This document shows, one piece after another, positions 9,925 to 60,194 of a stretch of DNA of 64,000 bases. The stretch lies in IMG/VR virus record IMGVR_UViG_3300029171_000004, one strand, 5' to 3'. The position numbers were made by a program, and so were the translations under genes. A model generated the notes under the pieces. It had not been told where the DNA came from and ran no database searches. It worked only from the letters and a program-made list of their open reading frames with translations. Each line of letters opens with the position of its first letter. Position 1 is the stretch's first letter. The stretch is from a virus.

Positions 9925-11139
9925 ATGTTTATGAATGATTACCCAAGACTTCTTGAAGAATTTTGTAGGGAAGGGAATCTTCATAATTACAGATTTTCTC
10001 TCGTTAAAATTTTTGCAGCTATTGATCTTAATCCTTGTAAGATATCATGTCAGTACATTTCCCCTGCTTCCAGCATCACCTTTCTCCCAGAGGGCCCAAT
10101 TATTCGTGTTGCAATTAAAGGCCGCAAAAATCCATTACATATCATTTGGGATTTGTTGCATGAGTATGGGCATTTTGTGATTGGTCCCAATGAAACCAAT
10201 GACAAAAACAAGATGGCTGTTAACGAATACCATGCTTGGAAATTCGTGTCAAAGATGATGGCTCGGCTTCCTGAATTGGACCGTTATAAAATAGAATACG
10301 AGCAATATAAACAAGAATGCTTGTCAACTTATATTGAAAAACTCCAGTTAAATTACGATGTCGAAGCCATATTAAAAAAATATATGCCAAGTATCATTGA
10401 ACTGTTAGGAGGTCAAAGCATTTCATGGACTTCTATCAATAAGGGACTTACACAGCATATTTCTGAAATCCGTAAAGAGTTTTATGCCACTGGGAAATTA
10501 ATTTTAAAGGAGACAAGTTTTTATTCGATGATTGCTGAAAGGTTTACAGGAACTGGAAAATCAAATGCGATGTTTGACTACTACGATACATTGTTTAAGA
10601 AACTTAATACCAAACTAACATCAGAAGAAAAGCAGCCAGTTAGGCGAATTATATTGCAACTTCTCACTAATCTTAATAATAATCACATGAATTTCATTGG
10701 TGAACTGTCCGTGCTCGATAAATACATTTCCACTGGGCAATATTACTTTGTCAACATAGAAGCAAGAATCTCTTCTGATAGTAATGTTACGGCAGATATT
10801 TATTTAAAGCGTAAATTAGATGGTAGTGATTTTCTGGTTGAAGTACTCAATTTGCATTTGGAAAAAACGCAAATCAATGACTATTCAAAATTTAAATATC
10901 ACTTGGACTCAAAATTTACCCAAAAAATCAAGAGTAAGGGTATTTCCGATAAACGTGAAGTGAAAATACAGCCTGTGCTTTGGTATACGGACCACAATCA
11001 ATTTAAATGGGTTCAGGACTTTTTTTTAAAAACAGATTATGTGCATCCAGATGTACTTGACCCAATGTGCTATTGTAGTTACTTTAAGCATGATGGCTCT
11101 TATCAGCATTGGTTTGATCGTATCAAATTTATTAAATAA
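9925..11139 (+). CDS. HExxH (IrrE/ImmA-like) metallopeptidase fused to possible nuclease-like domain
   Basis: DLLHEYGH plus downstream NEYHAW; C-terminal ADIYL...FLVEV. Confidence 0.5.
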   Translation: MFMNDYPRLLEEFCREGNLHNYRFSLVKIFAAIDLNPCKISCQYISPASSITFLPEGPIIRVAIKGRKNPLHIIWDLLHEYGHFVIGPNETNDKNKMAVNEYHAWKFVSKMMARLPELDRYKIEYEQYKQECLSTYIEKLQLNYDVEAILKKYMPSIIELLGGQSISWTSINKGLTQHISEIRKEFYATGKLILKETSFYSMIAERFTGTGKSNAMFDYYDTLFKKLNTKLTSEEKQPVRRIILQLLTNLNNNHMNFIGELSVLDKYISTGQYYFVNIEARISSDSNVTADIYLKRKLDGSDFLVEVLNLHLEKTQINDYSKFKYHLDSKFTQKIKSKGISDKREVKIQPVLWYTDHNQFKWVQDFFLKTDYVHPDVLDPMCYCSYFKHDGSYQHWFDRIKFIK

Positions 11140-11153
11140 CAAAAAAATAATTT

Positions 11154-11636
11154 ATGTCACTGAAACCATTTCATTATCACTGTAGGGAAACAGTAAGTTT
11201 TGAGTACTTTAATGAAAATCGACCATGCTCTCCTGAAATAGTTGCAGAAGCTTTGCGTAAAATATATGAGGACTACTCAGATTATTATGTTTATCTGGGA
11301 ATCACGGAAAATCCGTGTGGAAGGTTCTCTGGTAATTACATGGTCAATGCTTTGCCGTTTGATATTAGACTTGAAGTACCAATAAGTCTTTATGATGCCA
11401 TTATGCTCGATGAAAGGTCTCATAGCGAAGATTACGAAAAAATGTTTGTAATCTGCTATGCAGAAAATGAAAAAGATATTCGGGATATGGAAGCTAAAGC
11501 AATCAAGTCGGGAGAGGGTATTGACTCTGACAGAACACTAAATTTAACTCTTGGTAGAAATGGTAATGTAAAACCAGGTCGGAATTTTTACTTCTTGTAT
11601 GCATGTATTACTTTAACTATTCCTCTTGAAGATTAG
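11154..11636 (+). CDS. GIY-YIG-like protein
   Basis: YYVYLGITENPCGRF and later conserved E (DMEAKAI). Confidence 0.45.
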   Translation: MSLKPFHYHCRETVSFEYFNENRPCSPEIVAEALRKIYEDYSDYYVYLGITENPCGRFSGNYMVNALPFDIRLEVPISLYDAIMLDERSHSEDYEKMFVICYAENEKDIRDMEAKAIKSGEGIDSDRTLNLTLGRNGNVKPGRNFYFLYACITLTIPLED

Positions 11637-14232: not shown

Positions 14233-15672
14233 ATGGGAAACAAAGTGAAGGCAACAAGGTCAAATACAAAGATTTCTCCGCACGGAGGAGTGGTTCCGAT
14301 TCTTAAGAAAATTAAGGAATGCGGAATACCTCAGCTTATCCGAAAGTGTCTGGGTAAGCGTGTGGAGCAATCTAAGTATGGCTATGATGACGTATTTATT
14401 GCTTGGGTATTGACCTCACTGTGTGGTGGAACCAGACTCGACCACATATCAAAATTAAAAAAGAAATTATCTATTATTCCTGAATTAAAACTGCCAAGCC
14501 ATGATACTCTAGGAAGAGTTATGAAAAAACTTGCCACTGAAACAACTTCAAAAAGGACACTAAGTAACAGATCAAGTGTGTATAATCAGATAAATGAAAA
14601 CATTCATCTCAACAGAATGTTGGTTAAATCAACCAAGAGCTCCAAAATTCTAAATGAACAAAGATCTTATACCATGCACATTGACGCAACATTCATTTCC
14701 ACTGAATGTCGGGGTGCGGTTAGAAAGAAAAACAAAGATGGTAAAGTCGAAGTTGCTCGCATTGGATTTAATCCGATGATTTGTTTAATCAATGAACTTC
14801 CAATATTCATAAGTATGAGGGATGGATATGCGAATTCCCACTTTGAATTAAACTCCTGTTTGCGAAACAGTTTGATGTTATTAACTGAATCAAAGATAAG
14901 GGTTGGCAGAGTCATTAGTGATGCGGCTGGCTATAACAAAGAAGCTTTCGAGTACCTTCATGGTAAAGACATAAAGTTTCTTGTGAGATTTCCATTTAAT
15001 TCTAGAATGGAAACATTTAAAGCATCTCTTATCAATTGTTCTAACTGGAGGTCAGCTGAAATAAGAACAGCCAATTTTAATTGGCTTTGTGAAGTTGGAG
15101 ACATTCCATATAAAATGCATGACCACTATTCTCTAAATTATACGTCACCGACTTGGCGAGTTGTTGCAATGAGAATACCTATAAATGAATTAAATGAAGA
15201 TACCAAGTTGGTGGCGATAAATAACAAAGAAAGGCTTAAAGTGTTAGCCAATAGAGGAAAATTGAAAGAAGTAGCAAAACCTTATACAGAAGGGAAGTGG
15301 ATTAGTTCAGGTAACTATATGTATAAATTTATTATCACCAATGATTATGATAAACCTGCTGAAGAACTTATCAATGAATTTAATAAACGAGGTTATGCTG
15401 AACGTGTTATTTCGTTTATGAAACAAGATTTTGCGTGGAGACTACCACCATTTATGAACATGAATGAAAACACAGTTTTTATGATTGCTGCAGCTTTAGC
15501 AAATAATATTTTCAGAGGAATGGTTAAGCTCTTTAATCAGTTCATACCACAATTAAAGCTAAGTGCAAGATTGAGAGAATTTCAATTTGTTTTCATTGAC
15601 GTGGCTTGTGCTTATGTGGATAGAACCTATATATTTTATAATACTGATATTGAATATGAACTTTTAATATGA
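14233..15672 (+). mobile_element. IS1380-family DDE transposase
   Basis: ISPHGG, HIDATF, ISDAAGY, RGYAERVISFMKQDF motifs; DDE triad appears intact; no terminal inverted repeats recognised. Confidence 0.8.
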
Positions 15673-21816: not shown

Positions 21817-23541
21817 ATGACAAAAGTTTATAAAATATTTCTGGATGATATCAGAGTTCCAACCGATATTTACCCTAAAGACAGCAACGAAGATTGGCTT
21901 ATAGTTAGGAATTTAACTGACTTTAAAAATGCAATTAACAAACTTGGAGCTCCAAGTTTCATTTCATTTGACAACGATTTAGGCGAAAGTAAGGAAGAGG
22001 GGAAAGATGCTGCAAAATGGATTGTCTTTGAAAAGGAGTTGGATATTACAAATACTAACTATATTGTTCATTCTGCAAATTCAAGTGGGGTGAGAGAATA
22101 TGTTTTGGGTACTTTAAACAATTGGAAAAAAGAGCTAAAAAAAAGAAGCACAGAAACAATGAATGAGCAAAATTTAAGACTTAAGGTAAGACAAATTCTT
22201 AGCGAAGCAAATGATGCGCAAAAAAATAAACTTGTTAAGATATTAAATTTTCTAGAATTTAAAAAGGATGTTATTGCTGCGGGTGGAGAAATATACGCTG
22301 TTGGTGGAATTGTTAGAGATGCTGTAATGGGTAAACCAAGCGATGATTTAGATATTGTTGTGCGTGGTGTACCATATGATGCCCTTTTTAAGATTCTTTC
22401 AAAATATGGTAAAGCCACAGATACATCTGTTGTTGATGAAAACGGAAAGAAAGATTTTGGTGCAACAAAGTTTGTGTCACACAATAAAATATTTAACAAG
22501 ATACTAAGTGATGCTGGTTTAAAAAGGGATATTGATGTGATGCTTCCAAGAAAAGACAGTAAGGATCAAAACGCAAAAGGTCACCGTGCCATAAAAAGTG
22601 ATGTGAACCCAATGTACACAATCCATGATGATTTAGATAGAAGGGATATTACAATTAACGCAATTGCCCTAGATTTAAGAGGTAATTTTATTGACAACGG
22701 TTACGCATTGCAAGATATTAAAAATGGTATAATACGTGCCGTTAGCGAGGATGCCTTTATTGAAGATCCACTGAGAATTGTTCGAGCTATAAGGTTTGCG
22801 GCCAGGTTTAATTATAACTGGGATGAAGGTACTTTGAATTTAATCAGAGATAATGTACAAATGCTTGCTGATAAAAACGAACTTCCAAGAGAAAGATTCT
22901 TGATGGAGTTTGAAAAAATGATTGGTAAAAGTGATTTGGGCCGTGCTGTTAAGCTTTTAGTTGACCTTGGGGCATACCGTGCCATATTTGGGATTGACTC
23001 TAAGATTAAAGATTTTAATCATTTTGAGAAGGCTAAAAACATTCCAGAGTTTTGTTATATGCTTTTTGAGTCTGAACCAGCTGATAGAATCATTCAACTT
23101 TCTACTCAAAATATCACTACAAAAACAGAAGATATTAAATACTTGCAAGCTTTGTGTAAATACATTGCTGAAGTAAAAGGTAGAAGTATGGATCATATTT
23201 CACACGTAAACGCTATTGCTACAATTTTCAACATATCATCAGTTATGCTTTTGGAATCATCTTACGTGGATGATAAAGATAGAATTTTAGCCAGGAAGTT
23301 TGCAAACGAGGAATTGCCAAAAACTGTTAATGATATTGGTTTAAGAAAGCAAGAATTTATTGACTTTGTGGTAAATGCAGTTGAAGGTACTGGTGCCAAC
23401 TTTGACGAGAAAAGAGATTTTCCAAAAATGGGCAAAGCTAAAAAGGTTGCTTTGCAAGCTATTTACAAGGGCGAAATAAAAAACAACCCAGAAGAAATTA
23501 AAAATTTCTTGTCAAGACACACCGAAATGTGGATGCAGTAA
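21817..23541 (+). CDS. cyclic-phosphate-processing receiver (cREC)-like domain fused to CCA-adding/poly(A) polymerase-family nucleotidyltransferase
   Basis: N-term IFLDDIR..ISFDNDLG..VHSAN; then VGGIVRD, DDLDI, DLDRRDITINAIA, EDPLRIVRAIRFAARF, ERFLMEFEK. Confidence 0.85.
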   Translation: MTKVYKIFLDDIRVPTDIYPKDSNEDWLIVRNLTDFKNAINKLGAPSFISFDNDLGESKEEGKDAAKWIVFEKELDITNTNYIVHSANSSGVREYVLGTLNNWKKELKKRSTETMNEQNLRLKVRQILSEANDAQKNKLVKILNFLEFKKDVIAAGGEIYAVGGIVRDAVMGKPSDDLDIVVRGVPYDALFKILSKYGKATDTSVVDENGKKDFGATKFVSHNKIFNKILSDAGLKRDIDVMLPRKDSKDQNAKGHRAIKSDVNPMYTIHDDLDRRDITINAIALDLRGNFIDNGYALQDIKNGIIRAVSEDAFIEDPLRIVRAIRFAARFNYNWDEGTLNLIRDNVQMLADKNELPRERFLMEFEKMIGKSDLGRAVKLLVDLGAYRAIFGIDSKIKDFNHFEKAKNIPEFCYMLFESEPADRIIQLSTQNITTKTEDIKYLQALCKYIAEVKGRSMDHISHVNAIATIFNISSVMLLESSYVDDKDRILARKFANEELPKTVNDIGLRKQEFIDFVVNAVEGTGANFDEKRDFPKMGKAKKVALQAIYKGEIKNNPEEIKNFLSRHTEMWMQ

Positions 23542-23562
23542 AAAAACTAGATATTTATTTAT

Positions 23563-23958
23563 ATGAGCGATAAGATCAGAAACATAATTAAAGAAGCACT
23601 CGAAGAGAGTGCTTTACTTTGTGAAGTAAAGATCGCTATCGACGATGAAAAGAAGCGTGGTTTTGCGCAAGCCATTGGTCAGCAATATAAAGAATCGCTA
23701 AAAGATTTAAAACCTGTTAAAATAGAAGGAAGGCTTAAGTTAGATAATGATAGTTTGTTTATAATCACTTTGTCTAATGGAGATATAATCCAGGCTTCAA
23801 AAAGTGCTAACCCAGCATATGCAAACATCATTATAAACAAAGGCGAAAAAGAGTATTTTATTAATTCACAAGAGTTGTTTACCAATAAATTTCCAGAACT
23901 AGTTAAAAAGTATTATTTGGAGTATAAAATGGCAAAGGCTGGTATTCCGTCCATGTAG
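23563..23958 (+). CDS. hypothetical late-type protein
   Basis: N-terminal IIKEALEE motif; TATTTAT upstream. Confidence 0.65.
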   Translation: MSDKIRNIIKEALEESALLCEVKIAIDDEKKRGFAQAIGQQYKESLKDLKPVKIEGRLKLDNDSLFIITLSNGDIIQASKSANPAYANIIINKGEKEYFINSQELFTNKFPELVKKYYLEYKMAKAGIPSM

Positions 23959-24374
23959 CCACCAATGGTGTTGTAATGGTACCATTCTAAGGCCATACCG
24001 TCATAACTTTCATCTTCAGATAATTCTTCTCCACTATCTTCATAACTCTTAGAAAGCTTTTGTAAATATAGTTCCTTATCTTGTAGGTAGATTGTAGATC
24101 CGTTATTAAGTATCAAGTGCCCAATTATGGTGTCTTCGTCACCAGTGGTAAACATGGCTTTACGATTCTTTTTCTTTATCGCACTCATGGCTTTTTTAGG
24201 TGAATCAAATGGAATATAATTTACACCCTTATACAGAGGTATAAAATCATTACCATACATCTCAGCATATCCCACTAATTTATCTAGGTTTTCCTTATCA
24301 AACTTGAATTCTTCGAGGTCTGGAACATCTTCCCTGATTTGTTTTTCGATTTTGTGCATATGTAAATTTACCAA
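23913..24374 (-). CDS. hypothetical protein
   Basis: 153 aa ORF; C-term DGMALEWYHYNTIG recalls a common phage family. Confidence 0.6.
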   Translation of the reverse strand: MVNLHMHKIEKQIREDVPDLEEFKFDKENLDKLVGYAEMYGNDFIPLYKGVNYIPFDSPKKAMSAIKKKNRKAMFTTGDEDTIIGHLILNNGSTIYLQDKELYLQKLSKSYEDSGEELSEDESYDGMALEWYHYNTIGGYMDGIPAFAILYSK

Positions 24375-24495
24375 AAAAGCTTAGTGTTTGCAAGTTTGTC
24401 TATAATTTTTCAATAAAAAGACAATAAATATTGGTTTTTGTTAAAAGTTCGCCTATAATTATAAAATTTTACAATATTTATTATCAAACAGTTAA

Positions 24496-24906
24496 GTGTT
24501 TATGAATCATAGAGAATTTAAATCTGCTGAAGAGTTCAAGCAATATGTCATTAGTGAAGCAACGAAATATTTGTTTTCATCTGAGACTAAAGCACCTAAG
24601 GCAACAATTAACGAGAACGTTTCCGAAGAAGCGCCATCAATTACTCCTGATGATATAAATAGACTAGCCGAAGAAATAAAGAAGATCAATAAGACCATAG
24701 ACCTTAGAAATCCACTCATTTCTGAAAGTGAAGAGAGTATTGTTGAAAGCATTATGAAAAAATCTATCAGAGAAAGAAGCGTAGATGTCGATGGTATAAA
24801 CAAGAAAAAACATCTAGACTTTCAAAACGAATCTGAAAAAAATAAATGGAATAGATTGCTCAACTACAACACTTTAAAAAGTGATGATGATGAGAGAAAA
24901 AAATAA
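24496..24906 (+). CDS. hypothetical late-type protein
   Basis: Multiple IxE motifs, TATTTATTA upstream, terminator downstream. Confidence 0.65.
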   Translation: MFMNHREFKSAEEFKQYVISEATKYLFSSETKAPKATINENVSEEAPSITPDDINRLAEEIKKINKTIDLRNPLISESEESIVESIMKKSIRERSVDVDGINKKKHLDFQNESEKNKWNRLLNYNTLKSDDDERKK

Positions 24907-24930
24907 AAACGTCAAATAAAAGCAAGTGAG

Positions 24931-24954
24931 GCCAGTTGAAAAACTGGCTTTTTT
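24931..24954 (+). terminator. intrinsic terminator
   Basis: GCCAGTT-GAAA-AACTGGC-TTTTTT. Confidence 0.8.
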
Positions 24955-24974
24955 GTTCTATTTATAAGTACATT

Positions 24975-26660
24975 ATGAACTGCATACCAAACAGAATAAA
25001 AAAGCGCCTTAAGGAAATTATTTCGCCAGACTCGGTGGATGTTTCTGATGTTTCCAAACTAAAAAATGGTCTAAACGGCAAAATTTGGGACCAAGGTGGA
25101 ATTTTAAAGCCAGAGGTTAGAGAAAAGATGATCCAAATCGGAAAAGAATTTTATAACCTTTTAAAACTTGAATATCCGATTAAGGATATATATTTCACTG
25201 GAAGCTTAGCAAACTACAATTGGACAAATCATAGCGATATAGATATTCATGTAATTTTTGACAAAACAGACGAGGATCCAAGTGAGTTGATTTCTGATTA
25301 TATTGATGCTAGGAAAGAAAATTGGTGGTATAGACACGACATTTCAATATATGGCTTTCCCACAGAATTATTTGCTAAAGAATTTGAAGACATTCATCAA
25401 TCAAAAGCTGTTTATAGCCTCCTACAAAACAGGTGGGTTAAAAAACCTTCTAAGAAAAATATAGTTATTGATTCTGAAGCTATACAGTATAAAGCTGCAG
25501 ATCTAATGAATAGAATTGACGATGTGGAAAAGATGTCAAATGATGAAAAAAGACTTTCTGCTGCAGACAATTTAAAGAAAAAAATTAAACAAATGAGAAA
25601 AGCTTCTTTAGAAGCTGGCGGTGAATATTCAACCGAAAACTTGGTATTTAAAACTCTAAGGAATAATAGGTATATCGAAAAACTAGACAATATTAAAACC
25701 GACTCTTTTGACAATACTATGAGTTTAAACGAATCAAAAACAAGAAACAAAGACGGAAGTCCAAAGTTTGGGTGTCTAATGGTATATTTTGATATTCCAA
25801 ATTGGGATAAAGTAACTGGTAAAATACTTCCAGAAGATGTATATGACGAACCAGGTTTTGGTATAGAAGATGAGCCTCACACAACAGTCTTGTATGGTTT
25901 TCATGATGAGGTACAGCTTGAGGATGTGCAAAAAATTACTAAAAAGATAGCAAAGGGGCCAATTAGCGTTGAAGTTACTGGTGTTGGAGTTTTTTCTGGA
26001 GATAAAATGCCATATGATGTTGTTAAATTTAACGTGGAATCCAAAGAGCTTGAAAGGATGAATGCTGCTGCGAAGAAATTGCCACACACTTCTTCGTTTC
26101 CTAAATATGAAGCACATATGACAATTGCATATGTAAAAAAAGGAGCTGGTGAAAAATATAAAAAAGAATTTGCCCAACCAATTAAGTGCACTGGGTATAA
26201 AATGGTTTTTTCTCTTGCGGATAAAACAAAGTACAATTGGAATTTAATTAAAAAGAATGTGTTAAAAGTTGAGAGAGATATTCCAGGAATTACTTCTGAA
26301 AAAATTGTGATTCTAAAAGACTTTATAAATTTCACATGTGCCAAGCTACAAATGAAAGAGCCAGTAACCGTAGTTATAAAAAGCGGAAGAGATGAATATA
26401 TTTCAACAACAGCAGCTTATTTACCAAATGAAAATGAAAACCATATAAGGTTTGGAGGGAGAGCTCTTGTGGATGTTTGTAGATCTATTGGCCATGAGTT
26501 AGTTCACAATAGACAACGTGAACTTGGTATGTTCAAAAAAGGGGAAGAGGTACAAAATATTGGTGGACCAATAGAAGACCAAGCAAACGCTATTGCTGGA
26601 GTATTAATAAAAGACTTTACTCACAATTATGGATATGACAAATTATATGAATTGGATTAA
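24975..26660 (+). CDS. Pol-beta nucleotidyltransferase + 2H phosphoesterase + HExxH metallopeptidase fusion
   Basis: TGSLANYNW..SDIDIH; PHTTVLYG and AHMTIAY; GHELVH; ATG 24975 after TATTTATA. Confidence 0.75.
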   Translation: MNCIPNRIKKRLKEIISPDSVDVSDVSKLKNGLNGKIWDQGGILKPEVREKMIQIGKEFYNLLKLEYPIKDIYFTGSLANYNWTNHSDIDIHVIFDKTDEDPSELISDYIDARKENWWYRHDISIYGFPTELFAKEFEDIHQSKAVYSLLQNRWVKKPSKKNIVIDSEAIQYKAADLMNRIDDVEKMSNDEKRLSAADNLKKKIKQMRKASLEAGGEYSTENLVFKTLRNNRYIEKLDNIKTDSFDNTMSLNESKTRNKDGSPKFGCLMVYFDIPNWDKVTGKILPEDVYDEPGFGIEDEPHTTVLYGFHDEVQLEDVQKITKKIAKGPISVEVTGVGVFSGDKMPYDVVKFNVESKELERMNAAAKKLPHTSSFPKYEAHMTIAYVKKGAGEKYKKEFAQPIKCTGYKMVFSLADKTKYNWNLIKKNVLKVERDIPGITSEKIVILKDFINFTCAKLQMKEPVTVVIKSGRDEYISTTAAYLPNENENHIRFGGRALVDVCRSIGHELVHNRQRELGMFKKGEEVQNIGGPIEDQANAIAGVLIKDFTHNYGYDKLYELD

Positions 26661-27084
26661 AAAAATAATTACATCAATTGCCCTTGTTTGTTCTTTGAAC
26701 ACATTTGCTCAAAACCAAATTACCATAGCACCATCCATGTATAACACCTGGGTTGAATCTAATTCAACTTGTGCGGGGTGTGGATCTTTTTATGCAATGG
26801 TTGTAAACGAGAAAGTGAGAGCTAAAGATGGGTATTATTATATGTATGTATATCTGTGGAGTAACAGCTATTATGCAAATGGGTACACTGCAAGTTCTTA
26901 TATAAAAAATATTAATTTGTTTTTTACAGATGGTGTAAAAGATTATTATGCGGTTGGTTTTCAATATGTTTTAGTACCACCAAAGTCTTTAGATTTTAAT
27001 GGGTGGTACCAGGTTGCATATTTATATCATGTATATCCAAACCAATCAATAAAAATAACTTGGTCTAACGTTAAAGCTTGGTAA
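26647..27084 (+). CDS. secreted protein
   Basis: MNWIKKIITSIALVCSLNTFAQ signal peptide; aromatic beta-rich body. Confidence 0.6.
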   Translation: MNWIKKIITSIALVCSLNTFAQNQITIAPSMYNTWVESNSTCAGCGSFYAMVVNEKVRAKDGYYYMYVYLWSNSYYANGYTASSYIKNINLFFTDGVKDYYAVGFQYVLVPPKSLDFNGWYQVAYLYHVYPNQSIKITWSNVKAW

Positions 27085-27085
27085 A

Positions 27086-27493
27086 ATGGGTGATGGTAAA
27101 GAATTAAATGTTGGAGACAAAGTTATTGGCGAAGGAACAAAAATAACACTTTCTGTTAAAACCGCCTTGTGGATAATTGGTGGCGCAATCACATTGTGTA
27201 CAACAATATTTTCAATGATGTATTTTGATGTAAAATCAGATGTTTCTGATTATAAAAAACAAATTGATAGAGATAAAGAAATGTTTGTAAAACAAGTTGA
27301 AGAAAACATTTCTAATAAACTTGAAAAACAAAGAGATAAAGATGAAGAGTTTATTAAATCCATAGAAGAAATTCGTGGAAACATAAGGCTTCTCCTGGAT
27401 AGAACTCAGGGTATAAGAACTTCTAACCCATCATCTGATGGTATTCCAACTATCGAATCTAACACTCCTGGTACCAGGCCCCCAAGTCATTAA
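27086..27493 (+). CDS. single-TM coiled-coil protein (holin-like possible)
   Basis: TM segment LWIIGGAITLCTTIFSMMY then charged coiled coil. Confidence 0.5.
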   Translation: MGDGKELNVGDKVIGEGTKITLSVKTALWIIGGAITLCTTIFSMMYFDVKSDVSDYKKQIDRDKEMFVKQVEENISNKLEKQRDKDEEFIKSIEEIRGNIRLLLDRTQGIRTSNPSSDGIPTIESNTPGTRPPSH

Positions 27494-32512: not shown

Positions 32513-33142
32513 ATGAATCTTTATAGCATACAACGTGGTGAGATTTCATCAAAAGGCAAAAAAAGACAGCCAATATTGTTTCAAACATTGTTTATATCCA
32601 TTGGTTTGGTTTTGACAATATTGTTATCAAGTGCTACAATGGGTTTTATAACTCTATTGATATATTTAGTTTTTGCACTTAATTGGTCAATTAGTTTAGA
32701 ATCACAATCTAAAAGAGTGTATTTTTTACCGCAGTGTTCTTATGCGTCTCCAAATAGCGATAAAATAAATGTTGTATATGGGTTTTCACGTGGATATTAT
32801 AAGTGGAATTCGGCATTCATAGGATGGAGGGGAATAGGAAATGGTCACATAGAATTATTGGCATGTTCATATTCAAATGGTAAATTAATAACCAAAGTAA
32901 TGCTTGTGTGTAAAACTCAAAATTGGGTGTTTTTAAACATTAGAAATAAGAGCGGAAAATATGTTTTTATGGTCAGAACACATAATGGCAACTATAACAT
33001 TTCCTCAATTCCAAAACCAAAATTCATGTCAATTTACACTTTATTTAAACTATTTATAATAAACATGTACCCAAGACTTGCGAATGGCACCAAAACAACA
33101 TTCGATACAAAGTTATACGTACAAACATTGGAAAATAAATGA
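32513..33142 (+). CDS. membrane-anchored hypothetical protein
   Basis: Two N-terminal hydrophobic helices. Confidence 0.55.
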   Translation: MNLYSIQRGEISSKGKKRQPILFQTLFISIGLVLTILLSSATMGFITLLIYLVFALNWSISLESQSKRVYFLPQCSYASPNSDKINVVYGFSRGYYKWNSAFIGWRGIGNGHIELLACSYSNGKLITKVMLVCKTQNWVFLNIRNKSGKYVFMVRTHNGNYNISSIPKPKFMSIYTLFKLFIINMYPRLANGTKTTFDTKLYVQTLENK

Positions 33143-34839: not shown

Positions 34840-34865
34840 AATTTTATGGGCTATTTATAGAATAA

Positions 34866-35747: not shown

Positions 35748-35932
35748 AGCTAATATCAGAGTATGATAAAATTATCTCTAGGCTTAAAGCTGAAGGTAAA
35801 GTAAAAGAGATAGAATGGGCTGCTGAACAACAAAAAAACTGGGAAAGAATAGTGTCTGAAATTAGAAGAGAAAGCAGGTACAAACAAGCTATGAGTGCAA
35901 TTGAAGTGAGTAAAGTAATTTTAAACGCATAA
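35726..35932 (+). CDS. hypothetical protein
   Basis: 68 aa ORF, TAATG coupling to next gene. Confidence 0.55.
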   Translation: MVTMGKIELISEYDKIISRLKAEGKVKEIEWAAEQQKNWERIVSEIRRESRYKQAMSAIEVSKVILNA

Positions 35933-36774
35933 TGGAAAAATTGACTGGACCACAACAAGAAAATACCGCTTTACACGATAGAGTGTATTATCATGGTATT
36001 TCTGGTAGAAGACTTGCAGAATTTTTAAAAAATGGAATTATTCCAGTTGCTCAACAAGCTTTTGGTGGTGAATTTTCTATCACAGATGATTATACGATAG
36101 CAAAAGCACATGCAGGTGAAAATGGTGTGGTGTTAGAAATAAGGGTTAATCCAAGAACAAATTTTGAATATGCTGATCCTTTTGCAGAAGATTATGTGCC
36201 ACATGGAGATATAAGCGATATTGGTGAATCTGAATTTATAGTAAACAACCCAGATGTTTTATATTCAATAAATGTTATGAAAGAAAATGTCAATGAAGAA
36301 AAATTAAGCGGCGGCAAAGCGGATGGAATGACCACTAAAGATATTGCAAAAAAACACGGGGTTAGTTTATCATCAATTGAAAAAGAAATAAAATTAGGGC
36401 TCCCAATTGAGTCAGAACACACTGATTCAAAAGAAAAACAAATGGAAGTTGTTCTAGATCACCTTTTTGAGGATCCTGAATATTATTCAAACAAAAAGAC
36501 TGGTTTAATTACAAAAGAAAAAGAGGCAGAAAAAAGAATGGAAAAATCTGTAAATGAAGTTGCAAAAAAAATGAAGGCGCTTGCTGGTATCGCAGAGTCT
36601 GACAAAAAATTTTTAAATAACCCAGATTTCGGCGAACAAAATCAAGTTGAAAAAAACAATACAACACCTCCAAAATTAATGGAGAACGATGACAAAAGAT
36701 TTGTAATTATTGAATTTGAGCAAGAAGAAGTTGAACCTGGTGATGATGATGATAAACTTTATAAACTAAAGTGA
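35932..36774 (+). CDS. ADP-ribosyltransferase-like domain fused to DUF5661-like domain
   Basis: YYHG...FSITDD..IAKAHA..VVLEI...ESEFIV; then IESEHT...LDHLFEDPEYYS. Confidence 0.55.
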   Translation: MEKLTGPQQENTALHDRVYYHGISGRRLAEFLKNGIIPVAQQAFGGEFSITDDYTIAKAHAGENGVVLEIRVNPRTNFEYADPFAEDYVPHGDISDIGESEFIVNNPDVLYSINVMKENVNEEKLSGGKADGMTTKDIAKKHGVSLSSIEKEIKLGLPIESEHTDSKEKQMEVVLDHLFEDPEYYSNKKTGLITKEKEAEKRMEKSVNEVAKKMKALAGIAESDKKFLNNPDFGEQNQVEKNNTTPPKLMENDDKRFVIIEFEQEEVEPGDDDDKLYKLK

Positions 36775-37512
36775 TCAGATAAAATTTGTATTCAGAAACT
36801 TTAATGTTTCTGCTTTTTCTATGTCTTTAAAGTTTGTCGCAAACAGCACAAATTCCTTTATCATTTTTTTGTACTTAGATATTGGCTCCTGATTTCCCTT
36901 TCCTTGAATTTGTATTACTTGAGAATGTTTTACGTCTAGCTCCATTGTTACGTGTGGTTCGTTTTTACCATCTCTAATTGATAATATTGCGGATGTACCA
37001 CCCCTTATCCTGGCAGCATAACTTGTGTTACTACCAACACAATGACCCATTGCTTTACCTTCATATTTTAAATCGCCACCATTTAATAAATACAAAAAGT
37101 GTGTTTTATCACTGAATCTAAATATTACTCTTTCCATATCTAAATCTGGAACACGCAAGTCCTCAATATCATATTTTAGCATCATTTGTTGGTGCCATTC
37201 TGATTGCGCTTCGTTGGCTTCCTCAAAATTATATGAAAATAAATCCGCTTTTGTAGATACGGCCCAATCTATTATCAATCTCACATCAAAAGCTAAATCA
37301 AGAACACCTATATCTTTCTTTGCTTCTTTAGCTATCCAAACATCGTATTTGTGTTTCCTTTTATCTGATTTGGATTTATCTTGGCTAACATTTACTCCAA
37401 TAAAACCAATATTATCCCCAATTGCAGATATTCGTTTTGCAATTTTTTCAGCTTCGTCACTATCGTAGTTACTAAAAAATGTCTTTATATACTCTTCTCT
37501 TTTAGTTAACAT
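36775..37512 (-). CDS. PcfJ-like domain protein
   Basis: LKYEGKAMGHCVG, ILSIRD, PHVTMEL, QIQGKGN. Confidence 0.75.
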   Translation of the reverse strand: MLTKREEYIKTFFSNYDSDEAEKIAKRISAIGDNIGFIGVNVSQDKSKSDKRKHKYDVWIAKEAKKDIGVLDLAFDVRLIIDWAVSTKADLFSYNFEEANEAQSEWHQQMMLKYDIEDLRVPDLDMERVIFRFSDKTHFLYLLNGGDLKYEGKAMGHCVGSNTSYAARIRGGTSAILSIRDGKNEPHVTMELDVKHSQVIQIQGKGNQEPISKYKKMIKEFVLFATNFKDIEKAETLKFLNTNFI

Positions 37513-50699: not shown

Positions 50700-50791
50700 A
50701 ATGTTTTAGCTATAAATAGCTTAGAAAAGCACTTTTTTCTTATAAAATTGAAACTTTTTGAAACTATTTCCGTATAATAAGATAAATCGCT

Positions 50792-51738: not shown

Positions 51739-53682
51739 TTATTTATCCATTAAACGCTTAAATAGGCTCTGCATAATATTTTGGTCGGCTTTTTTTACAT
51801 CTTTTTTAATGGATTGCCCATCCAAAACACGGCCCACAATCTTTGATTTTTCATCAAGTAGCTCCAAAATATCCTCATCAAGAGTATCTAAGCAGTATGG
51901 CGTAATAATTTGTATATTGTCATGTGTGGTAGAAGCTCTGTGAATTCTATCCTCAGCTTGTTCCATATCGCTAGGTGTCCAGGCAAATCCCATAAATATA
52001 AACCTTGATGCCGCTGTTAAAGTAATACCTACACCAGATGCAATGATCATACCAGAGAATACCTTGATGTTTTTATCTTTCTGAAACCTATCAACAGATT
52101 CTTGTTTGTCCACTTCATTCATGGAGCCAGTGTGAAGTACAGCTACGTCTTTAAAGTGTTCATATATTTGATTGGCGATGTCTTGAAAATCGGACATTAT
52201 AACAACCTTTTCGCCAGATTCTATAATATCTTGTATGTATTCGACAACTCTTTTAAGCCTACATTTAGCTGTAAACATTTTTAGTTTGTTGACCATAACC
52301 AAGTAGGAGTCTTTCACTTCCTCACCATCAATCATTTTTACACACTCTTCAAGAATTTTGTTGTATTCTTTGTATTCAGTGTCATCTAACTCAATTGGAA
52401 TATTTGTGTAGGTCTTAGGTGGAAGATCCTTTAAAATGTCTTTTTTTAGTCTTCTAAGGAAAAATCTTGACATTCTTTCATACAATTCTTCTAAGTTTGA
52501 TGCTCCGTCATATTTCCAACCAAAAGTATCTTGAAAACCTGCGCAATACCTAACACCAAATTCGTGTTGGTTATTCCATTCTTCTGGGTATAAAAAATTA
52601 AGTCCGACAAAGAATTCTTTGGGCCTACTTTTAATAGCTGTACCAGATAACAACAATTTTCTTGGGGCATATTTAAAAGCTTCTCTAATTATTTTTGTCC
52701 AACCAGTCTTCTTTTCTTTAATCCTGTGAAACTCATCAATCACAATAAGATCATAGTCTAAAGGATTTAATTGGTGTCCGAATTTATCTTCTGAAAATTG
52801 GTGTCCCACAATTTTACTTTTAAAAGAGTTTGAATTTTTACAAACTGGACACTCTTTGTGTTTTTGAATGTTGTCTATAATTTCGTGACCACAAATTCTG
52901 CTGCCCTTTCCTTCTGCTATTATACTGCCCTTGCAAACGTGCTTATATTGGATATCAACATATGTCTCTAAAGCTTCATAATTTATAATGTGAAATAAAG
53001 ATTCTTCTTTTGTGTATGCGGTGTGTGTGCTATTTTTCTTTGGTTTGTATTTGTATATAAAAGCTTTATCTTTTGTAAATTCAAGTGTTTCGTTTTTCCA
53101 ACCAAACTTAAGAGAAGAAGGGCATATCACAAGCGTCTTGTATCTGTGTTTGGCGGCATAAACTAGTGCAGAAAGTGTTTTACCAACTCCAGGTTGATCT
53201 CCGAGTATTGCTTTACCATTATTAATTTCAAAAAAAGCAACAGCTTGTCTTTGATAAGAGTGCGGTTGTCTTTTCATAAATGGTAACGGTTCATCTGAAA
53301 CTTGTATTTGATCCGCTTTTAACTTTAAAACTTGTGCAAGTCTATTTTGCCTTTGAATAAATTCTTGTCTAAGTTTATTGATGTCTTCTTCTAAAACGTT
53401 TTTAAAGTGAAATTTTATATCATTGTCTAAAAAAAATGAGATCACCTGACCCATTGCAACCTCACGAATTAATCGAACCCAAACATCTTTTGGTTTACCG
53501 CTATCCATATCAACTATACTGTCCACTCTAACACCCCTGTGTTCCCTTGGAAGTGTTTTTATAAACTCGGTAAGCATAGGATTATAGTCATATCTAAGCT
53601 CGTAGTTTGTCTTAAGCTTAGTTATTTCTACTTGAAATTCCTTCTTAGTTTTTAAACTTGCGGTTTTTTCTTTTTTAGCCAT
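51739..53682 (-). CDS. SNF2/SMARCAL1-like SF2 helicase
   Basis: GDQPGVGKT, IDEFH, LSGTA, FFLRRLKKD, SGVGITLT, QAEDRIHR. Confidence 0.9.
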   Translation of the reverse strand: MAKKEKTASLKTKKEFQVEITKLKTNYELRYDYNPMLTEFIKTLPREHRGVRVDSIVDMDSGKPKDVWVRLIREVAMGQVISFFLDNDIKFHFKNVLEEDINKLRQEFIQRQNRLAQVLKLKADQIQVSDEPLPFMKRQPHSYQRQAVAFFEINNGKAILGDQPGVGKTLSALVYAAKHRYKTLVICPSSLKFGWKNETLEFTKDKAFIYKYKPKKNSTHTAYTKEESLFHIINYEALETYVDIQYKHVCKGSIIAEGKGSRICGHEIIDNIQKHKECPVCKNSNSFKSKIVGHQFSEDKFGHQLNPLDYDLIVIDEFHRIKEKKTGWTKIIREAFKYAPRKLLLSGTAIKSRPKEFFVGLNFLYPEEWNNQHEFGVRYCAGFQDTFGWKYDGASNLEELYERMSRFFLRRLKKDILKDLPPKTYTNIPIELDDTEYKEYNKILEECVKMIDGEEVKDSYLVMVNKLKMFTAKCRLKRVVEYIQDIIESGEKVVIMSDFQDIANQIYEHFKDVAVLHTGSMNEVDKQESVDRFQKDKNIKVFSGMIIASGVGITLTAASRFIFMGFAWTPSDMEQAEDRIHRASTTHDNIQIITPYCLDTLDEDILELLDEKSKIVGRVLDGQSIKKDVKKADQNIMQSLFKRLMDK

Positions 53683-54082
53683 TGTGTCTTTCGGCTCTCT
53701 TAGCCTCAATTTTTCTTATTCGTATTTCTTCTTTTTCTAATCTTTGTTTTTCAGCTTCAATGGATTTAAAAAGTTTTGATTCTTCGAATGGTATATCTTG
53801 ATTTGTTCTTCTTTGTATTTCGTCACGAATAATGTCAGATAATAATTTTATATCATTCATTGCTTTTCTAACATCAACCCTTGCTGCTTTTACATCAAGA
53901 ATAAGATCTTCAGTTCTTTTTTTTATTTCATCAGCTTTCTTAATTAGTTTTAAGAGCATGTCCAACTCATTAAAATTTTTAAGTTCCTCTAACTCTTTTA
54001 AGTTCATATGATTACTTTTGATTATTTGAAATAAAACCCTTAAGGCCTTCCAACATTTCTGGGGTAAGCTTTGAGGCTGCAT
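53675..54082 (-). CDS. coiled-coil protein
   Basis: Likely start MNLKE; helical, R.DVRK.M..IK motif. Confidence 0.55.
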   Translation of the reverse strand: MQPQSLPQKCWKALRVLFQIIKSNHMNLKELEELKNFNELDMLLKLIKKADEIKKRTEDLILDVKAARVDVRKAMNDIKLLSDIIRDEIQRRTNQDIPFEESKLFKSIEAEKQRLEKEEIRIRKIEAKRAERHNG

Positions 54083-56234: not shown

Positions 56235-56733
56235 AACAACCGACGTAAGATTTTTTTAAGTCGTGTTTTTCCATAATAGTTTTATCTTTGATGTATAGGT
56301 TAAAAAACAATGTTCGTTTTATCTCAAAAACTAATTTTTCTTCATGAAACCCCTGAAGTAAATATCCAGATTTAGAAGATTTCCACTTAATTTTTCCGAA
56401 ACTTCTTTCTAACTCAGAAACAGCTTTTTCTAGTTTTTCTTTTTCCAATCGTTTTTGTTCAATATCACGAAGTTTTCTTTTTATTTTTTCTTGAGCTTCG
56501 TTAATTTTTATTTGATTTAATATTTTAAGTTTCTCTTGTCTCTCAGTTTCGTGTCTAAGCCTTTCTTTTTCTTCATTATCTTTGTCTGTTTCCTCTTGTA
56601 TGGCCACAATTGTACTTATAGCATTTTGAGCGTCGGTTTTTGACGGTGGTCTTCCACGCTTTCTTTTGGGCGTGTTTGCTGGTTGTATTCCCTGCACTTG
56701 TGGTGTAGATGGTATTGATGGGATAATGCTCAT
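56164..56733 (-). CDS. hypothetical protein with AT-hook-like motif
   Basis: KRKRGRPPSK, coiled coil. Confidence 0.6.
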   Translation of the reverse strand: MSIIPSIPSTPQVQGIQPANTPKRKRGRPPSKTDAQNAISTIVAIQEETDKDNEEKERLRHETERQEKLKILNQIKINEAQEKIKRKLRDIEQKRLEKEKLEKAVSELERSFGKIKWKSSKSGYLLQGFHEEKLVFEIKRTLFFNLYIKDKTIMEKHDLKKSYVGCSMILTSLKKRSEKILSTSSQSSR

Positions 56734-59700
56734 AAAATGTTGATTGATGTGATGCCAGCCTTAGGGTTCTTATCTAACGCCTCTTGGGTAAGGCCAGTTT
56801 TCACCTTAGTTACTTCTATTATGTTGTCAGCAAAATCTTTAATCTCGCTTCTATGTGTTATCACAATCACGTTTTTGTGTTTATTCTTTAAATAGTTTAA
56901 AATGTTAATAATTTCAAATGTGAGCTCATCATCCAGGGTTCCAAAACCCTCATCAATGATGCATAAAGAAGGTTTTGTGAGGCTACTAATATAGTGTAGT
57001 GAATCTTTGATTGCGATGGTGGACACAAATTTTTGGGCCCCAGACGCAAATGAAAGTGGCAACATATCAGATTTGTCATCGTTGAAATAAAACGTTTCTA
57101 CGATGTCTCCGTTTTCTAAAATAGAAAGTTCCAATCTAAAATCTACGGCTTGTTGCAAAATAGTATTGATTCTGTGGTTAATCAAAGGTAGTTTTTTCCT
57201 AATAATCAGAGCTGGAATACCATCCCTATGCATAGCTTGTAGGTATATAGAATACTTTCTAAATTTCTTTTCGTACTCACTTATATCTATTAGTTTCTGC
57301 TTGTAATTTTCAATGTTATTTTCAATAACCTTTAATTCTCCAAACAAAATTGTTGCTTGCTTGTCCATGTTGTATACAGTAATCTTGTAAGCTTTGGATA
57401 GTTCTGCTTTTTCATCAATTCGTTCTTGAATATCGGCATTCTTTTCTTTTTTAGATTCGTTGTCTTTAATTTTAGACACCATATCTTCATATTTTTTAAG
57501 CTGCGACTTAAAATCATCCAACTTGTTTTTGGCTATTGTTAAAGCATTTGATTTATTGTCTACATCAGTATTGTGTTTAATTATATCAGCAGATTTTAAA
57601 ACAATTTCAAGTTTCTCTTTTAAAGATTTTATTTTATCCAACCTATTCTCAATGCCCTGTTTTATATTGACAAGCTTATCAATATTGTTTTGATATGTTG
57701 TGTTGTGAGTTTGGTTTTCCTTGTTTTTTTTGATTCTATCTTTTTTGTGTAATAACAATTCTTTAGATATTCGAATATCCTCCAAACACTCTTCTTCTTT
57801 GTGTGGATCAGCTTTTTGCTGTACACTTCCACAGGTGGGGCAATTCTTTCCCTTGTAGGTTATTAACTGACCTTCTAAAGTTGTAATTTTTGCCCCAAGC
57901 TCTTCAATGCTTTTTTCATATTGATAAATAACATTGTCACTTTCAACTGGAAGTATTTGTTTAGAATTAATCCAAGACTCAAGCTCTAACTTATTTGTTT
58001 CTTCTCTTTTTAAAGCTGCTTGTTCTGAAGAAATTTGAGATGTGATTTGACTCTCAGATAAAGAGCCATCAAACGGAAGTTCCTTTTTAAAGTTTTTAGA
58101 CAACCAATCGTTCAGCTCATCTATTTCTTTAACTTTTATTTCTATGTCTGATTTACACTGATTTATTTTATAAGTAACAGTGCCTATATCTTGTATCTCA
58201 ACAGGTTCAAGTTTCTCAAGTTTCTTTGTAAGGTTTAAAATTTCAACATCTACATTTTCTTTGTTTTGCGTTGCTTTGTTTTTTTCCGCAACACAATCTT
58301 CGTAATTTTTGTTTTTGGAATCTCTGTCAATTGTAAGAGCTCTTATTTTGTCTTCTATAGCTGGTTTGTCACCTAATTCTTTCTGTTTTTTCTTTACTTC
58401 GTTGAACTCTTCTTTCCTATATTCGTACCTATCTTTGTAGGCCTCTAATCCCATATACTTGCTTACAAGATTGTTTTTTGGTTGTTGAGACATGCTGAGA
58501 TAATCATCTTTTCCGCCTTGTGTTTGCAAAGATGTTTTAGTAAAATCATCAAATGTTCCGATTGCGTTTTCAATTAATTTTCCAACTTCATTTTTTTCAG
58601 CTGTAGCAGAATCAGATTTTTCGTTTTCCCATTTTTCGTTTTCTAAGTTTCCCTCTTCGTCATATTCCATCTCAAGAGACTTGTATGAAATACCATAACT
58701 ATTAGATGTGCCGCCATCTTTTTTTACAGTGGTTTTCACAGTTCTTTCGATGAGGTATTTTTTACCATCAATTGTGATCCAAAGTTTTACATAACCCTTG
58801 TTTGAATCTGTGTAAATATTTACCACATATTTTGGAGAATTCATATCTCCTCCCAAAATTTCTTTAAATAATCCCCAAACGAGAACTTTAATTAAATTGG
58901 ATTTACCGTTATAATTCTTGCCAAAGATTCCAGTAAGACCACCAAGTAAATCGAAGTCAATAGTAATTGGTTTTATGGGTAAAGAAAAAATATTGCTTAC
59001 TTCCATTTTATTTAATTCCCATCTAAAACTATCATGTCTTATTTCATTAAGTTCTAACTCGGCATTTGTGTCTCTGTGTAGTTTTAAAATATCAGCCAAT
59101 TCTTCATCTGTGCAATTGTAGTCTCCTGTAGATAAAAATTCTTTCAAATATTCTTCACTTTCTTTAATATCTTCACTTTCATCTTCGGTGATTACAATTT
59201 CTTTTGGCATAGCTTCAAACTGTACCTTTACAACTTCGCAACCATATTTATCCTTTACAAGACGACCAATTTGATTTTCTTTTTCTTGAGAAAAGTTTTC
59301 TTCATAATCCTCCCAAATAATGTATACCTTAGTTTTCTTTTTATTGCTACTGAATTTTATATGTTCAATTCTTTCTTCAAATTTTTCACCCTTGGCAATA
59401 TTTAATTTTGCAAAACCATAATCATTTGGCACAAACTTTCTTTCGTGGGTTTTATTTTCTACATCCCATAACAGATAACCCTTATCTACAGACTCACCAT
59501 AATTCTGTTGAATTAAGGAACCACAATAAGCCATAGATTCATCCTCACGAAATGTTTGATATTCGTGGATGTCACCCATCATAACAATATCAAAATTGTT
59601 AAATATGGTTGGCTTCCAGTGGGTATCAGTTTGTATGATTAACCCATTGTCTCCTCTCGCTCCGTTTATTTGACCATGAAATAAAGCTACATAATTTACA

Positions 59701-60194
59701 CCTGGTTGTTTTTCTTCTAATGTAAGAATTTTGTTATCTTTCATCGAGAATACACCATATACAAAGTTGTCCGCAATTTTATAAAAACCACTATCTGGAT
59801 AATAATAAATTGCTTTTTTATTATAATCTATTGTGTCTTTATTTTCTGAATTTATAATGTATGCGCTTTTATTCTCGTGTGTTTCTATAAGATTGGTAAG
59901 GTTAAAAATTGGGCTAATAGAGTCACCTTGTTCCAACTGCTGTAAATTCATGTCGTGGTTACCAAGAATAACATCCGTTGGAGCAACTCTTGATAGACCG
60001 ATAAGTAACTCTGAAATAAGATTAAATGATCCTGGTGAAATATTAATCTTGTGGTGACTAATATCACCAGCTACAACAATCCTGTCAGGCTTAATCTTAT
60101 GTAAGTCTTCGATCAGTTTTTTAAATACAGCTCTGTATTCATCATGTCTTGATCCAAATCTAACTTGTATATCTGCTAAGTGCGCAATTTTCAT
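56730..60194 (-). CDS. SbcD(Mre11)-SbcC(Rad50) fusion nuclease-ATPase
   Basis: AHLADIQ, VAGDI, LGNHD, GDIH; GKNYNGKS, CPTC hook, ASGAQ, IIDEGFGTLD, ITHR in one ORF. Confidence 0.9.
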   Translation of the reverse strand: MKIAHLADIQVRFGSRHDEYRAVFKKLIEDLHKIKPDRIVVAGDISHHKINISPGSFNLISELLIGLSRVAPTDVILGNHDMNLQQLEQGDSISPIFNLTNLIETHENKSAYIINSENKDTIDYNKKAIYYYPDSGFYKIADNFVYGVFSMKDNKILTLEEKQPGVNYVALFHGQINGARGDNGLIIQTDTHWKPTIFNNFDIVMMGDIHEYQTFREDESMAYCGSLIQQNYGESVDKGYLLWDVENKTHERKFVPNDYGFAKLNIAKGEKFEERIEHIKFSSNKKKTKVYIIWEDYEENFSQEKENQIGRLVKDKYGCEVVKVQFEAMPKEIVITEDESEDIKESEEYLKEFLSTGDYNCTDEELADILKLHRDTNAELELNEIRHDSFRWELNKMEVSNIFSLPIKPITIDFDLLGGLTGIFGKNYNGKSNLIKVLVWGLFKEILGGDMNSPKYVVNIYTDSNKGYVKLWITIDGKKYLIERTVKTTVKKDGGTSNSYGISYKSLEMEYDEEGNLENEKWENEKSDSATAEKNEVGKLIENAIGTFDDFTKTSLQTQGGKDDYLSMSQQPKNNLVSKYMGLEAYKDRYEYRKEEFNEVKKKQKELGDKPAIEDKIRALTIDRDSKNKNYEDCVAEKNKATQNKENVDVEILNLTKKLEKLEPVEIQDIGTVTYKINQCKSDIEIKVKEIDELNDWLSKNFKKELPFDGSLSESQITSQISSEQAALKREETNKLELESWINSKQILPVESDNVIYQYEKSIEELGAKITTLEGQLITYKGKNCPTCGSVQQKADPHKEEECLEDIRISKELLLHKKDRIKKNKENQTHNTTYQNNIDKLVNIKQGIENRLDKIKSLKEKLEIVLKSADIIKHNTDVDNKSNALTIAKNKLDDFKSQLKKYEDMVSKIKDNESKKEKNADIQERIDEKAELSKAYKITVYNMDKQATILFGELKVIENNIENYKQKLIDISEYEKKFRKYSIYLQAMHRDGIPALIIRKKLPLINHRINTILQQAVDFRLELSILENGDIVETFYFNDDKSDMLPLSFASGAQKFVSTIAIKDSLHYISSLTKPSLCIIDEGFGTLDDELTFEIINILNYLKNKHKNVIVITHRSEIKDFADNIIEVTKVKTGLTQEALDKNPKAGITSINIL

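Follow-up and report, generated by a model that had tools for sequence, protein, structure and literature searches.

Phages are known to join unrelated enzyme domains in single chains. In the polyvalent proteins described by Iyer, Burroughs, Anand, de Souza and Aravind in 2017, such domains occur together with a minimal zincin, and virion delivery followed by proteolytic release has been proposed for them (PMC5512222). The same paper counts the 2H phosphoesterase among the phage-type polyvalent modules, and zincin and 2H domains are typical of these injected proteins (PMC5512222). In T4, a 10-residue N-terminal capsid-targeting sequence (CTS), whose processing determinants lie at residues 8 and 10 and which is cut after Glu, takes internal proteins, and foreign proteins fused to it, into the head (PMC9026906). 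Here we analyse a protein that shares features with both systems, encoded on a 64,000-nucleotide (nt) stretch of DNA from a large uncultured phage, IMG/VR record IMGVR_UViG_3300029171_000004 (hereafter the window). Its open reading frame (ORF), at 24975-26660, encodes 561 amino acids (aa) and joins a divergent Pol-beta-superfamily nucleotidyltransferase (NTase), a 2H phosphoesterase and a zincin-fold metallohydrolase-like domain carrying an HExxH motif. This triple fusion had been proposed in a first-pass annotation made from the sequence alone. It is borne out by Pfam and PHROGs matches for the first two domains and by predicted structure for all three, and the assignment of the three domains is near certain. 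All the motifs named in that annotation are present, within a few bases of where it had placed them, and the SLNES linker does lie between the first two domains.

The frame is single and uninterrupted from 24936 to 26660 on the + strand, and the start was assigned to the ATG at 24975 because homologues begin with MN or MK at that point. A homologue search over 5.8 billion clustered proteins returned 491 relatives. Among the best 120 listed, about 60 were full length (549-674 aa, 37-79% identity, at least 90% query coverage). The full-length relatives represent many samples and contigs as long as 540 kb, and the relatives included an identical copy of the fused protein from another source. The high-scoring short matches that were inspected start within the NTase or the 2H domain, as truncated fused proteins would. 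An artefact joining separate genes could draw on the cultured phages: a gene of its own encodes the NTase in S-CRM01-group cyanomyoviruses, Cr30, Maribacter phage Molly and the Lak megaphages, the nearest 2H relatives also stand alone, and the two are separate, distant genes in these distant phages. In the close relatives, however, the genes are not split, which the first-pass annotation had named as a ground for refutation, and the full-length homologues and their alignment in practice refute the artefact, to which we attach a negligible probability. The three-domain fusion is genuine, does not result from assembly or gene calling, and is common among related giant phages.

The homologue alignment (A1) contains two main architectures, a long NTase-2H-HExxH form and a short NTase-HExxH form of 392-416 aa; in longer relatives the 2H domain is preceded, after the NTase, by DUF3008, DUF5661 or both. 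The insertion point is the linker at residues 249-262, at which relatives hold nothing, 2H, DUF3008, or DUF3008 plus DUF5661. Across the long, short and DUF3008/DUF5661 forms, the NTase and the zincin thus constitute a constant frame, and the 2H domain, dispensable in many relatives, is an optional middle cassette at a single insertion point. A separate 2H gene was sought in the phages with the short form and none was found, in records that are only 24-65% complete. An AlphaFold model computed on A1 had a mean predicted local distance difference test (pLDDT) of 84, with dips at residues 1-11 and 249-259, and a predicted template modelling score (pTM) of 0.42. It displays well-folded domains and no confident packing between them. 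Since the pTM of the full-length protein is only 0.42 despite the high pLDDT of the domains, the model suggests an arrangement as beads on a string. All three domains look catalytically active, since the catalytic residues of each are invariant in the homologues. No published description of the NTase-2H-zincin architecture was found in the literature searched. Coordinates are collected in Table 1. The DUF5661 cassette domain of the longer relatives is also carried by a separate gene of the window (35932-36774), which is adjoined by a PcfJ-like gene (36775-37512).

Table 1. Features of the fused gene, its flanks and other genes of the window (positions in the 64,000-nt window).
Feature	Position (nt)	Strand	Residues	Remarks
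Terminator-like hairpin and T run	24928-24951	+		upstream of ORF
CTATTTATA, promoter-like motif	24958-24966	+		8 nt before ATG
N-terminal leader	24975-25016	+	1-14	ends L12-K13-E14; low pLDDT
Pol-beta-superfamily NTase	25017-25733	+	15-253	ends L251-x-E253
GS in TGSLANYNW	25197-25223	+	75-83	
DxD in SDIDIH	25233-25250	+	87-92	
Flexible linker with SLNES	25719-25760	+	249-262	pLDDT <50 at 249-259
SLNES	25722-25736	+	250-254	
2H phosphoesterase	25761-26246	+	263-424	
PHTTVLYG	25875-25898	+	301-308	
AHMTIAY	26112-26132	+	380-386	
Zincin-fold metallohydrolase-like domain	26247-26657	+	425-561	
GHELVH	26490-26507	+	506-511	
Transposase-like gene	14233-15672			
Large helicase	51739-53709			
SbcC-like nuclease subunit	56730-60194			

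With the polyvalent proteins the window protein has in common its multi-enzyme chain, its minimal zincin and its phage origin. It differs from them by its small size and by the absence of any MuF, portal, ArdC-N or SNF2 module; its gene lies in a metabolic cluster, and its own zincin has no match to MPTase-PolyVal. The architecture fits the polyvalent concept, yet stands apart as a small variant whose NTase and zincin come from an unstudied and an unannotated family, respectively.

The window protein contains only four [LI]xE sites (6.6 expected, a depletion that is not significant), and two of these are conserved in the family, one within the leader and the other within the linker between NTase and cassette. 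At positions 12-14 of the leader, hydrophobic-x-E is found in 31 of 31 homologues, 22 of which have [LI]xE; L251-x-E253, within the low-confidence linker, is LxE in 32 of 32. The C-terminus of the stand-alone NTases corresponds to residues 251-252, after [S/G]L plus one residue, that is, just before E253, and the stand-alone NTases of T4-like phages carry [LI]xE within residues 5-14. In the longer relatives, [LI]xE is also found at cassette borders. These stand-alone proteins, which belong to phrog_36119 (S-CREM2 gp156, S-CRM01 g125, S-B68, Cr30, Molly gp26 and those of the Lak megaphages), are 31-42% identical to the window protein over residues 29-258. They share with it the NTase core, the helical bundle and the N-terminal [LI]xE, but end where the window protein enters its linker, and no zincin gene is adjacent to them. 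The genes downstream of the stand-alone NTases of Molly and S-B68 were tried as split-off zincins and rejected (hhalign probability <1%).

A prohead protease of the T4 gp21 type (S77) was found in the records of 4 of 5 relatives (E 1e-27 to 1e-33), including that of the 79%-identical relative and each of the three records with a completeness of 90% or more. CsCl-purified virions of cyanophage S-CREM2 yielded 6 unique peptides of its stand-alone NTase orthologue (gp156/ORF156, 126012-126725, E 2e-35), and the neighbouring ORF154, an NMNAT-like enzyme, and ORF155 were likewise detected (PMC10665884). The likeness to the internal head proteins of T4 and to Alt, which are led by a CTS, cleaved by gp21 and injected, lies in a short leader ending in (L/I)xE, an S77 prohead protease in the lineage, and an enzyme orthologue of the window NTase detected in virions (PMC10665884). 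The window protein differs in having no sequence relationship to IPI-III or Alt, and the LxE between its domains would make it a polyprotein. To our knowledge, such a form has not been described for the T4 internal proteins.

Residues 1-14 are a candidate capsid-targeting or prohead-protease propeptide. The best model that we can offer, for which we would claim somewhat less than an even chance, is that of a CTS-led polyprotein, packaged in the head, cut by the prohead protease into NTase and 2H-zincin, and delivered with the DNA. The leader ending in LKE would act like the capsid-targeting sequence of T4 and load the precursor into the head. The S77 protease of the lineage would then remove the leader and cut after E253, freeing an NTase of the size of the stand-alone NTases and a 2H-zincin piece, and the enzymes would enter the host with the phage DNA. 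Once injected, the 2H domain might open 2',3'-cyclic, 2'-5' or cyclic-oligonucleotide phosphodiesters, in host immune signals or at damaged RNA ends; the NTase might nucleotidylate a host protein or RNA, to be compared with T4 Alt acting on host RNA polymerase; and the zincin domain might cleave a host protein or complete the processing. The first-pass annotation had raised the possibility of a capsid-delivered precursor cut after LNE, and the invariance of LxE where the stand-alone NTases end, the S77 protease of the relatives and the virion NTase of S-CREM2 all speak for it indirectly, as does the second conserved hydrophobic-x-E at residues 12-14. The exchange of cassettes between a fixed NTase and a fixed zincin, the beads-on-a-string arrangement and the presence of the zincin family in other large multi-enzyme proteins also favour the model.

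Several observations weigh against this model. The virion proteome that supports delivery is that of a stand-alone orthologue and not of a fused member, and its authors point to the possible co-purification of abundant proteins (PMC10665884). LxE is just three residues long, and its conservation could be structural; a more distant clade has F-x-E at the N-terminus and not [LI]xE; and there is no conserved site between the 2H and zincin domains. The S77 protease was seen in the records of relatives and not within the window, and the gene sits among genes of nucleotide, NAD and tRNA metabolism, not among head genes. Three relatives of 516 aa (P0104, P0112 and P0113) are extended at the N-terminus by a module of some 100 aa beginning MKTYKYKEFKFIIE, with a second LxE before the NTase. 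Their MKTYKYKEFKFIIE start presumably resembles the T4 capsid-targeting sequence, and we take it as a lead only.

The NTase domain consists of a core (about residues 28-160) and a three-helix bundle (about 164-250). G76, S77, D88, D90 and the third acid, E131, are invariant in 32 homologues, and the catalytic residues are borne by predicted strands 69-75, 89-95 and 128-135, so that the hG[GS] motif, the DxD motif and the third carboxylate on a later strand of an alpha-beta-alpha-beta-alpha-beta core that define the Pol-beta superfamily are all present. Pfam NTP_transf_2 matches residues 63-109 (26 bits for a cut-off of 21, E 1.3e-5) and phrog_36119, whose function is not annotated, matches residues 29-251 (E 4.3e-45); no Pfam family of cGAS/DncV-like nucleotidyltransferases (CD-NTases) matched the domain. 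Modelled alone, it reached a pLDDT of 87.7. The top Foldseek match was CdnE (6wt9; E 3.6e-4, TM score 0.22, root-mean-square deviation (rmsd) 15.8), followed with nearly equal scores by AAD(9), CdnD (E 9.3e-4), ANT(9) and TENT5; overall, the fold matches had TM scores of about 0.2-0.27 and rmsd of 13-16 A. VIA-align recovered matches to the minimal core only (2rff, a minimal NTase, Z 6.4), matches to the helical bundle swamping the rest. When the NTase and zincin profiles were compared with the PDB, nothing significant was found; a match to UFL1 (E 0.003) was judged to be due to chance, for lack of an HExxH motif. We conclude that this NTase represents a family of its own in the Pol-beta superfamily.

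The 2H domain has the two HxT motifs and the pseudo-twofold alpha+beta fold of its superfamily, and H302, T304, H381 and T383 do not vary in any of the 24 members with the domain. Over residues 264-424, its model matched many 2H structures in VIA-align with Z of 10-13, among them Usb1 (13.0), the Acb1 structure 7t27 of FBB1 (12.0), the phage BCSR5 enzyme (11.7) and LigT-type enzymes (11.1-11.6), and Foldseek gave E values down to 5.6e-6. The best hit of a PDB profile search was the Acb1 of BCSR5 (9q2g, E 8e-5), and PH0099 scored E 3.8e-4; a paper on the BCSR5 enzyme was not found in the literature searched. At the sequence level, phrog_755, annotated 'RNA ligase', matches residues 298-399 (E 8e-11), and the Pfam families 2_5_RNA_ligase2, Acb1 and LigT match residues 299-404 just under their curated cut-offs: PF13563 scores 25.3 bits for a cut-off of 27 in the window protein and 35-52 bits in several relatives, and Acb1 (PF23474) scores 22.5 bits for a cut-off of 27, with only some relatives reaching 27.7-28.6. 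The domain thus shares fold and HxT motifs with Acb1 and with the 2',3'-cyclic phosphodiesterases of the LigT/ThpR type, but is only 14-18% identical to them, stays under the Pfam cut-offs of both families, and lies between two other enzymes. By structure and profile comparison, it is about equally close to phage Acb1 and to LigT-type enzymes. The likeness to Acb1 put forward in the first-pass annotation holds, but is not specific. In a short-form relative (L005), an Acb3-family (PF25187) gene at 10442-11245 was found about 1 kb downstream of the NTase-zincin gene, a possible counter-defence neighbourhood.

The C-terminal domain is predicted to follow the minimal core of zincin-like metallopeptidases (MPTases), which consists of a helix, three strands, the HExxH helix and a Glu helix (PMC5512222). 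The corresponding elements are helix 441-458, strands 465-469, 480-482 and 488-492, helix 498-516 with HExxH, and helix 532-552 with E534. The motif reads H507-E508-xx-H511, Q514, then E534-xx-A537-N538 on the next helix. In the 32 fused and 25 stand-alone members in which it was checked, H507, E508, H511, Q514, E534, A537 and N538 are invariant. Predicted fold and motif together place the domain in the zincin-like MPTase superfamily. With residues 425-555, VIA-align retrieved YbeY-family 1oz9 (Z 10.3), lugdulysin (M30, 9.6), Wss1 (9.0), catalytic domains of aminopeptidase N (M1, about 8-9) and M78 (IrrE, 7.2). YbeY, Wss1/SprT and M78 are thus among the best structural matches, but the window family has HExxH, an invariant Q514 and a Glu, E534, about 23 residues further on, which is of the peptidase, gluzincin-like type. 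YbeY has an H-x3-H-x5-H motif and no catalytic Glu, and in Wss1/SprT the third zinc ligand is a His. In the window protein the sequence runs H507-E-L-V-H511-N-R-Q-R-E, with no third His at +6, and the conserved candidate for the third zinc ligand is E534.

A search with the zincin profile against 1.84 billion cluster representatives gave 2142 matches, 620 of them below 1e-10. Among the weaker matches listed, most stand alone and measure about 135 aa. The nearest Atlas clusters are viral, and some matches form the end of large multi-enzyme proteins with an M23 peptidase, PAP2, or superoxide dismutase (SOD) plus zeta-toxin. Pfam matches of the family (M78, Tox-MPTase3/4, MPTase-PolyVal, DUF6782) all remain below threshold; MPTase-PolyVal is matched by 2 of 26 members (E 0.021). 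PHROGs hardly recognises the domain, and only 2 weak tblastn matches were found in cultured phages. The zincin domain therefore belongs to a large and almost unannotated family.

The SbcC-like nuclease subunit, the large helicase and the transposase-like gene (Table 1) confirm that the window covers a replication and metabolism region of a large phage. Upstream of the fused gene lie the nicotinate phosphoribosyltransferase (NAPRTase) of an NAD salvage cluster and, three genes away, a cREC-CCA-adding enzyme; genes for a dNMP kinase, thymidylate synthase and MazG are located downstream. This gene order is kept in relatives of both architectures. A CCA-adding enzyme is found within about 2-4 kb in 10 of 12 fused loci (L012-L024, leaving out L023, where only the NTase matched), and neither the stand-alone NTases nor the divergent fused locus L028 show the linkage. 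Because it is confined to one syntenic lineage, we read it as inherited synteny and as weak evidence of a shared pathway. In the window, the cREC (cyclic-phosphate-processing receiver) and the CCA-adding enzyme form one ORF (21817-23541); in 79%-related contigs (L001, 3944-6567) they are two genes with a LAGLIDADG-like ORF between them. Two genes just downstream of the fused gene were also noted, one (26629-27084) overlapping it by 32 nt and having a signal-peptide-like N-terminus, the other (27086-27493) with a predicted membrane helix and a coiled coil; at least one of the two is kept downstream of 11 of the same 12 loci.

This setting raises the question of a cytoplasmic, unprocessed enzyme for the repair of RNA or tRNA 3' ends, partner of the neighbouring cREC-CCA-adding enzyme. 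After cleavage by host RNases, the 2H domain would open the resulting 2',3'-cyclic phosphates and the NTase would re-extend the ends, and the zincin would act on RNA like YbeY. The proximity of the CCA gene fits such a role, all the more so as cREC and 2H are both predicted processors of cyclic phosphates in phage RNA repair; the best structural match of the zincin is of the YbeY family, and in Molly about 4 kb separate the stand-alone 2H gene from an RNA-repair HAD phosphatase. We nevertheless hold this role, the main rival of the polyprotein model, to be unlikely. The CCA linkage may merely reflect gene order inherited within one lineage, the ORFs scanned yielded no RNA ligase, polynucleotide kinase or Tpt1, the HExxH...E motif is that of a peptidase and not that of YbeY, and many relatives dispense with the 2H domain. 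Moreover, RNA repair leaves unexplained the conserved linker motifs and the detection of the orthologue in virions.

Processing, for its part, might be due not to the prohead protease but to the zincin itself, which in a self-processing polyvalent protein would release NTase and 2H either before packaging or after injection. Such a role has been proposed by Iyer et al. for zincin-like MPTases, the commonest hub domain of polyvalent proteins (PMC5512222), and it agrees with the intact HExxH...E site and with the constant coupling of NTase and zincin in the fused clade. Against it, the stand-alone form that prevails among the weaker zincin relatives has nothing to process, the conserved junction motif fits the logo of S77 proteases, no site is conserved between 2H and zincin, and autoproteolysis remains putative for every member of the zincin family; we consider self-processing distinctly improbable, and the first-pass idea of the zincin as a processing protease found no support. 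Still less probable in our view is a cyclic-nucleotide writer plus eraser, in which a CD-NTase-like synthase and an Acb1-type nuclease would rewire signalling of the CBASS type (cyclic oligonucleotide-based antiphage signalling system). CdnE and CdnD do head the Foldseek list of the NTase, and an Acb1 is the best PDB profile match of the 2H domain. Yet these NTase matches have low TM scores and high rmsd and are no better than those to aminoglycoside NTases and TENT5, only the minimal NTase core is recovered by VIA-align, CD-NTases are about 100 residues longer than the domain, and the 2H domain stays below the Acb1 cut-off and is equally close to LigT-type enzymes. The writer/eraser pairing of the first-pass annotation gained no support from the domain-by-domain structure comparison that it had called for, which related the 2H domain well to Acb1 and the NTase to CD-NTases only weakly and non-specifically. 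Taken as a whole, that earlier interpretation is partly supported.

The head-packaged, CTS-led polyprotein can be extended to a broader proposal, which we regard as possible but doubtful. NTase-[cassette]-zincin would be a cargo chassis of T4-like and jumbo phages, provided with a single leader and cut by S77 at LxE sites, and the injected set would disarm host immunity in the first seconds. As part of this same doubtful proposal, the set would combine an unstudied NTase effector with a small zincin protease and with an eraser that can be exchanged, for instance 2H.

The DNA flanking the gene carries a recurrent motif. CTATTTATA is present in 6 copies in the window, for 1.2 expected, among which those at 24958-24966, 34851-34859, 33050-33058, 50711-50719 and 1562-1570. 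Its shorter form, TATTTAT, lies 8-25 nt ahead of many start codons, including those of four consecutive genes at 21817-24975. CTATTTATA/TATTTAT is probably a phage promoter element giving very short leaders.

If the polyprotein model is correct, a widespread class of virion-delivered enzymes would join the few known examples, T4 IPI*, Alt and N4 vRNAP. Two families now without annotation, phrog_36119 and a zincin family with more than 2000 sequence clusters, would acquire a function. Phages would then be found to build small polyproteins on a single capsid-targeting leader, a natural counterpart of engineered T4 CTS packaging. The 2H cassette is a candidate eraser of immune signals in jumbo phages of uncultured hosts. 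Should the model fail, there remains a well-conserved multi-enzyme protein beside genes for tRNA and NAD maintenance.

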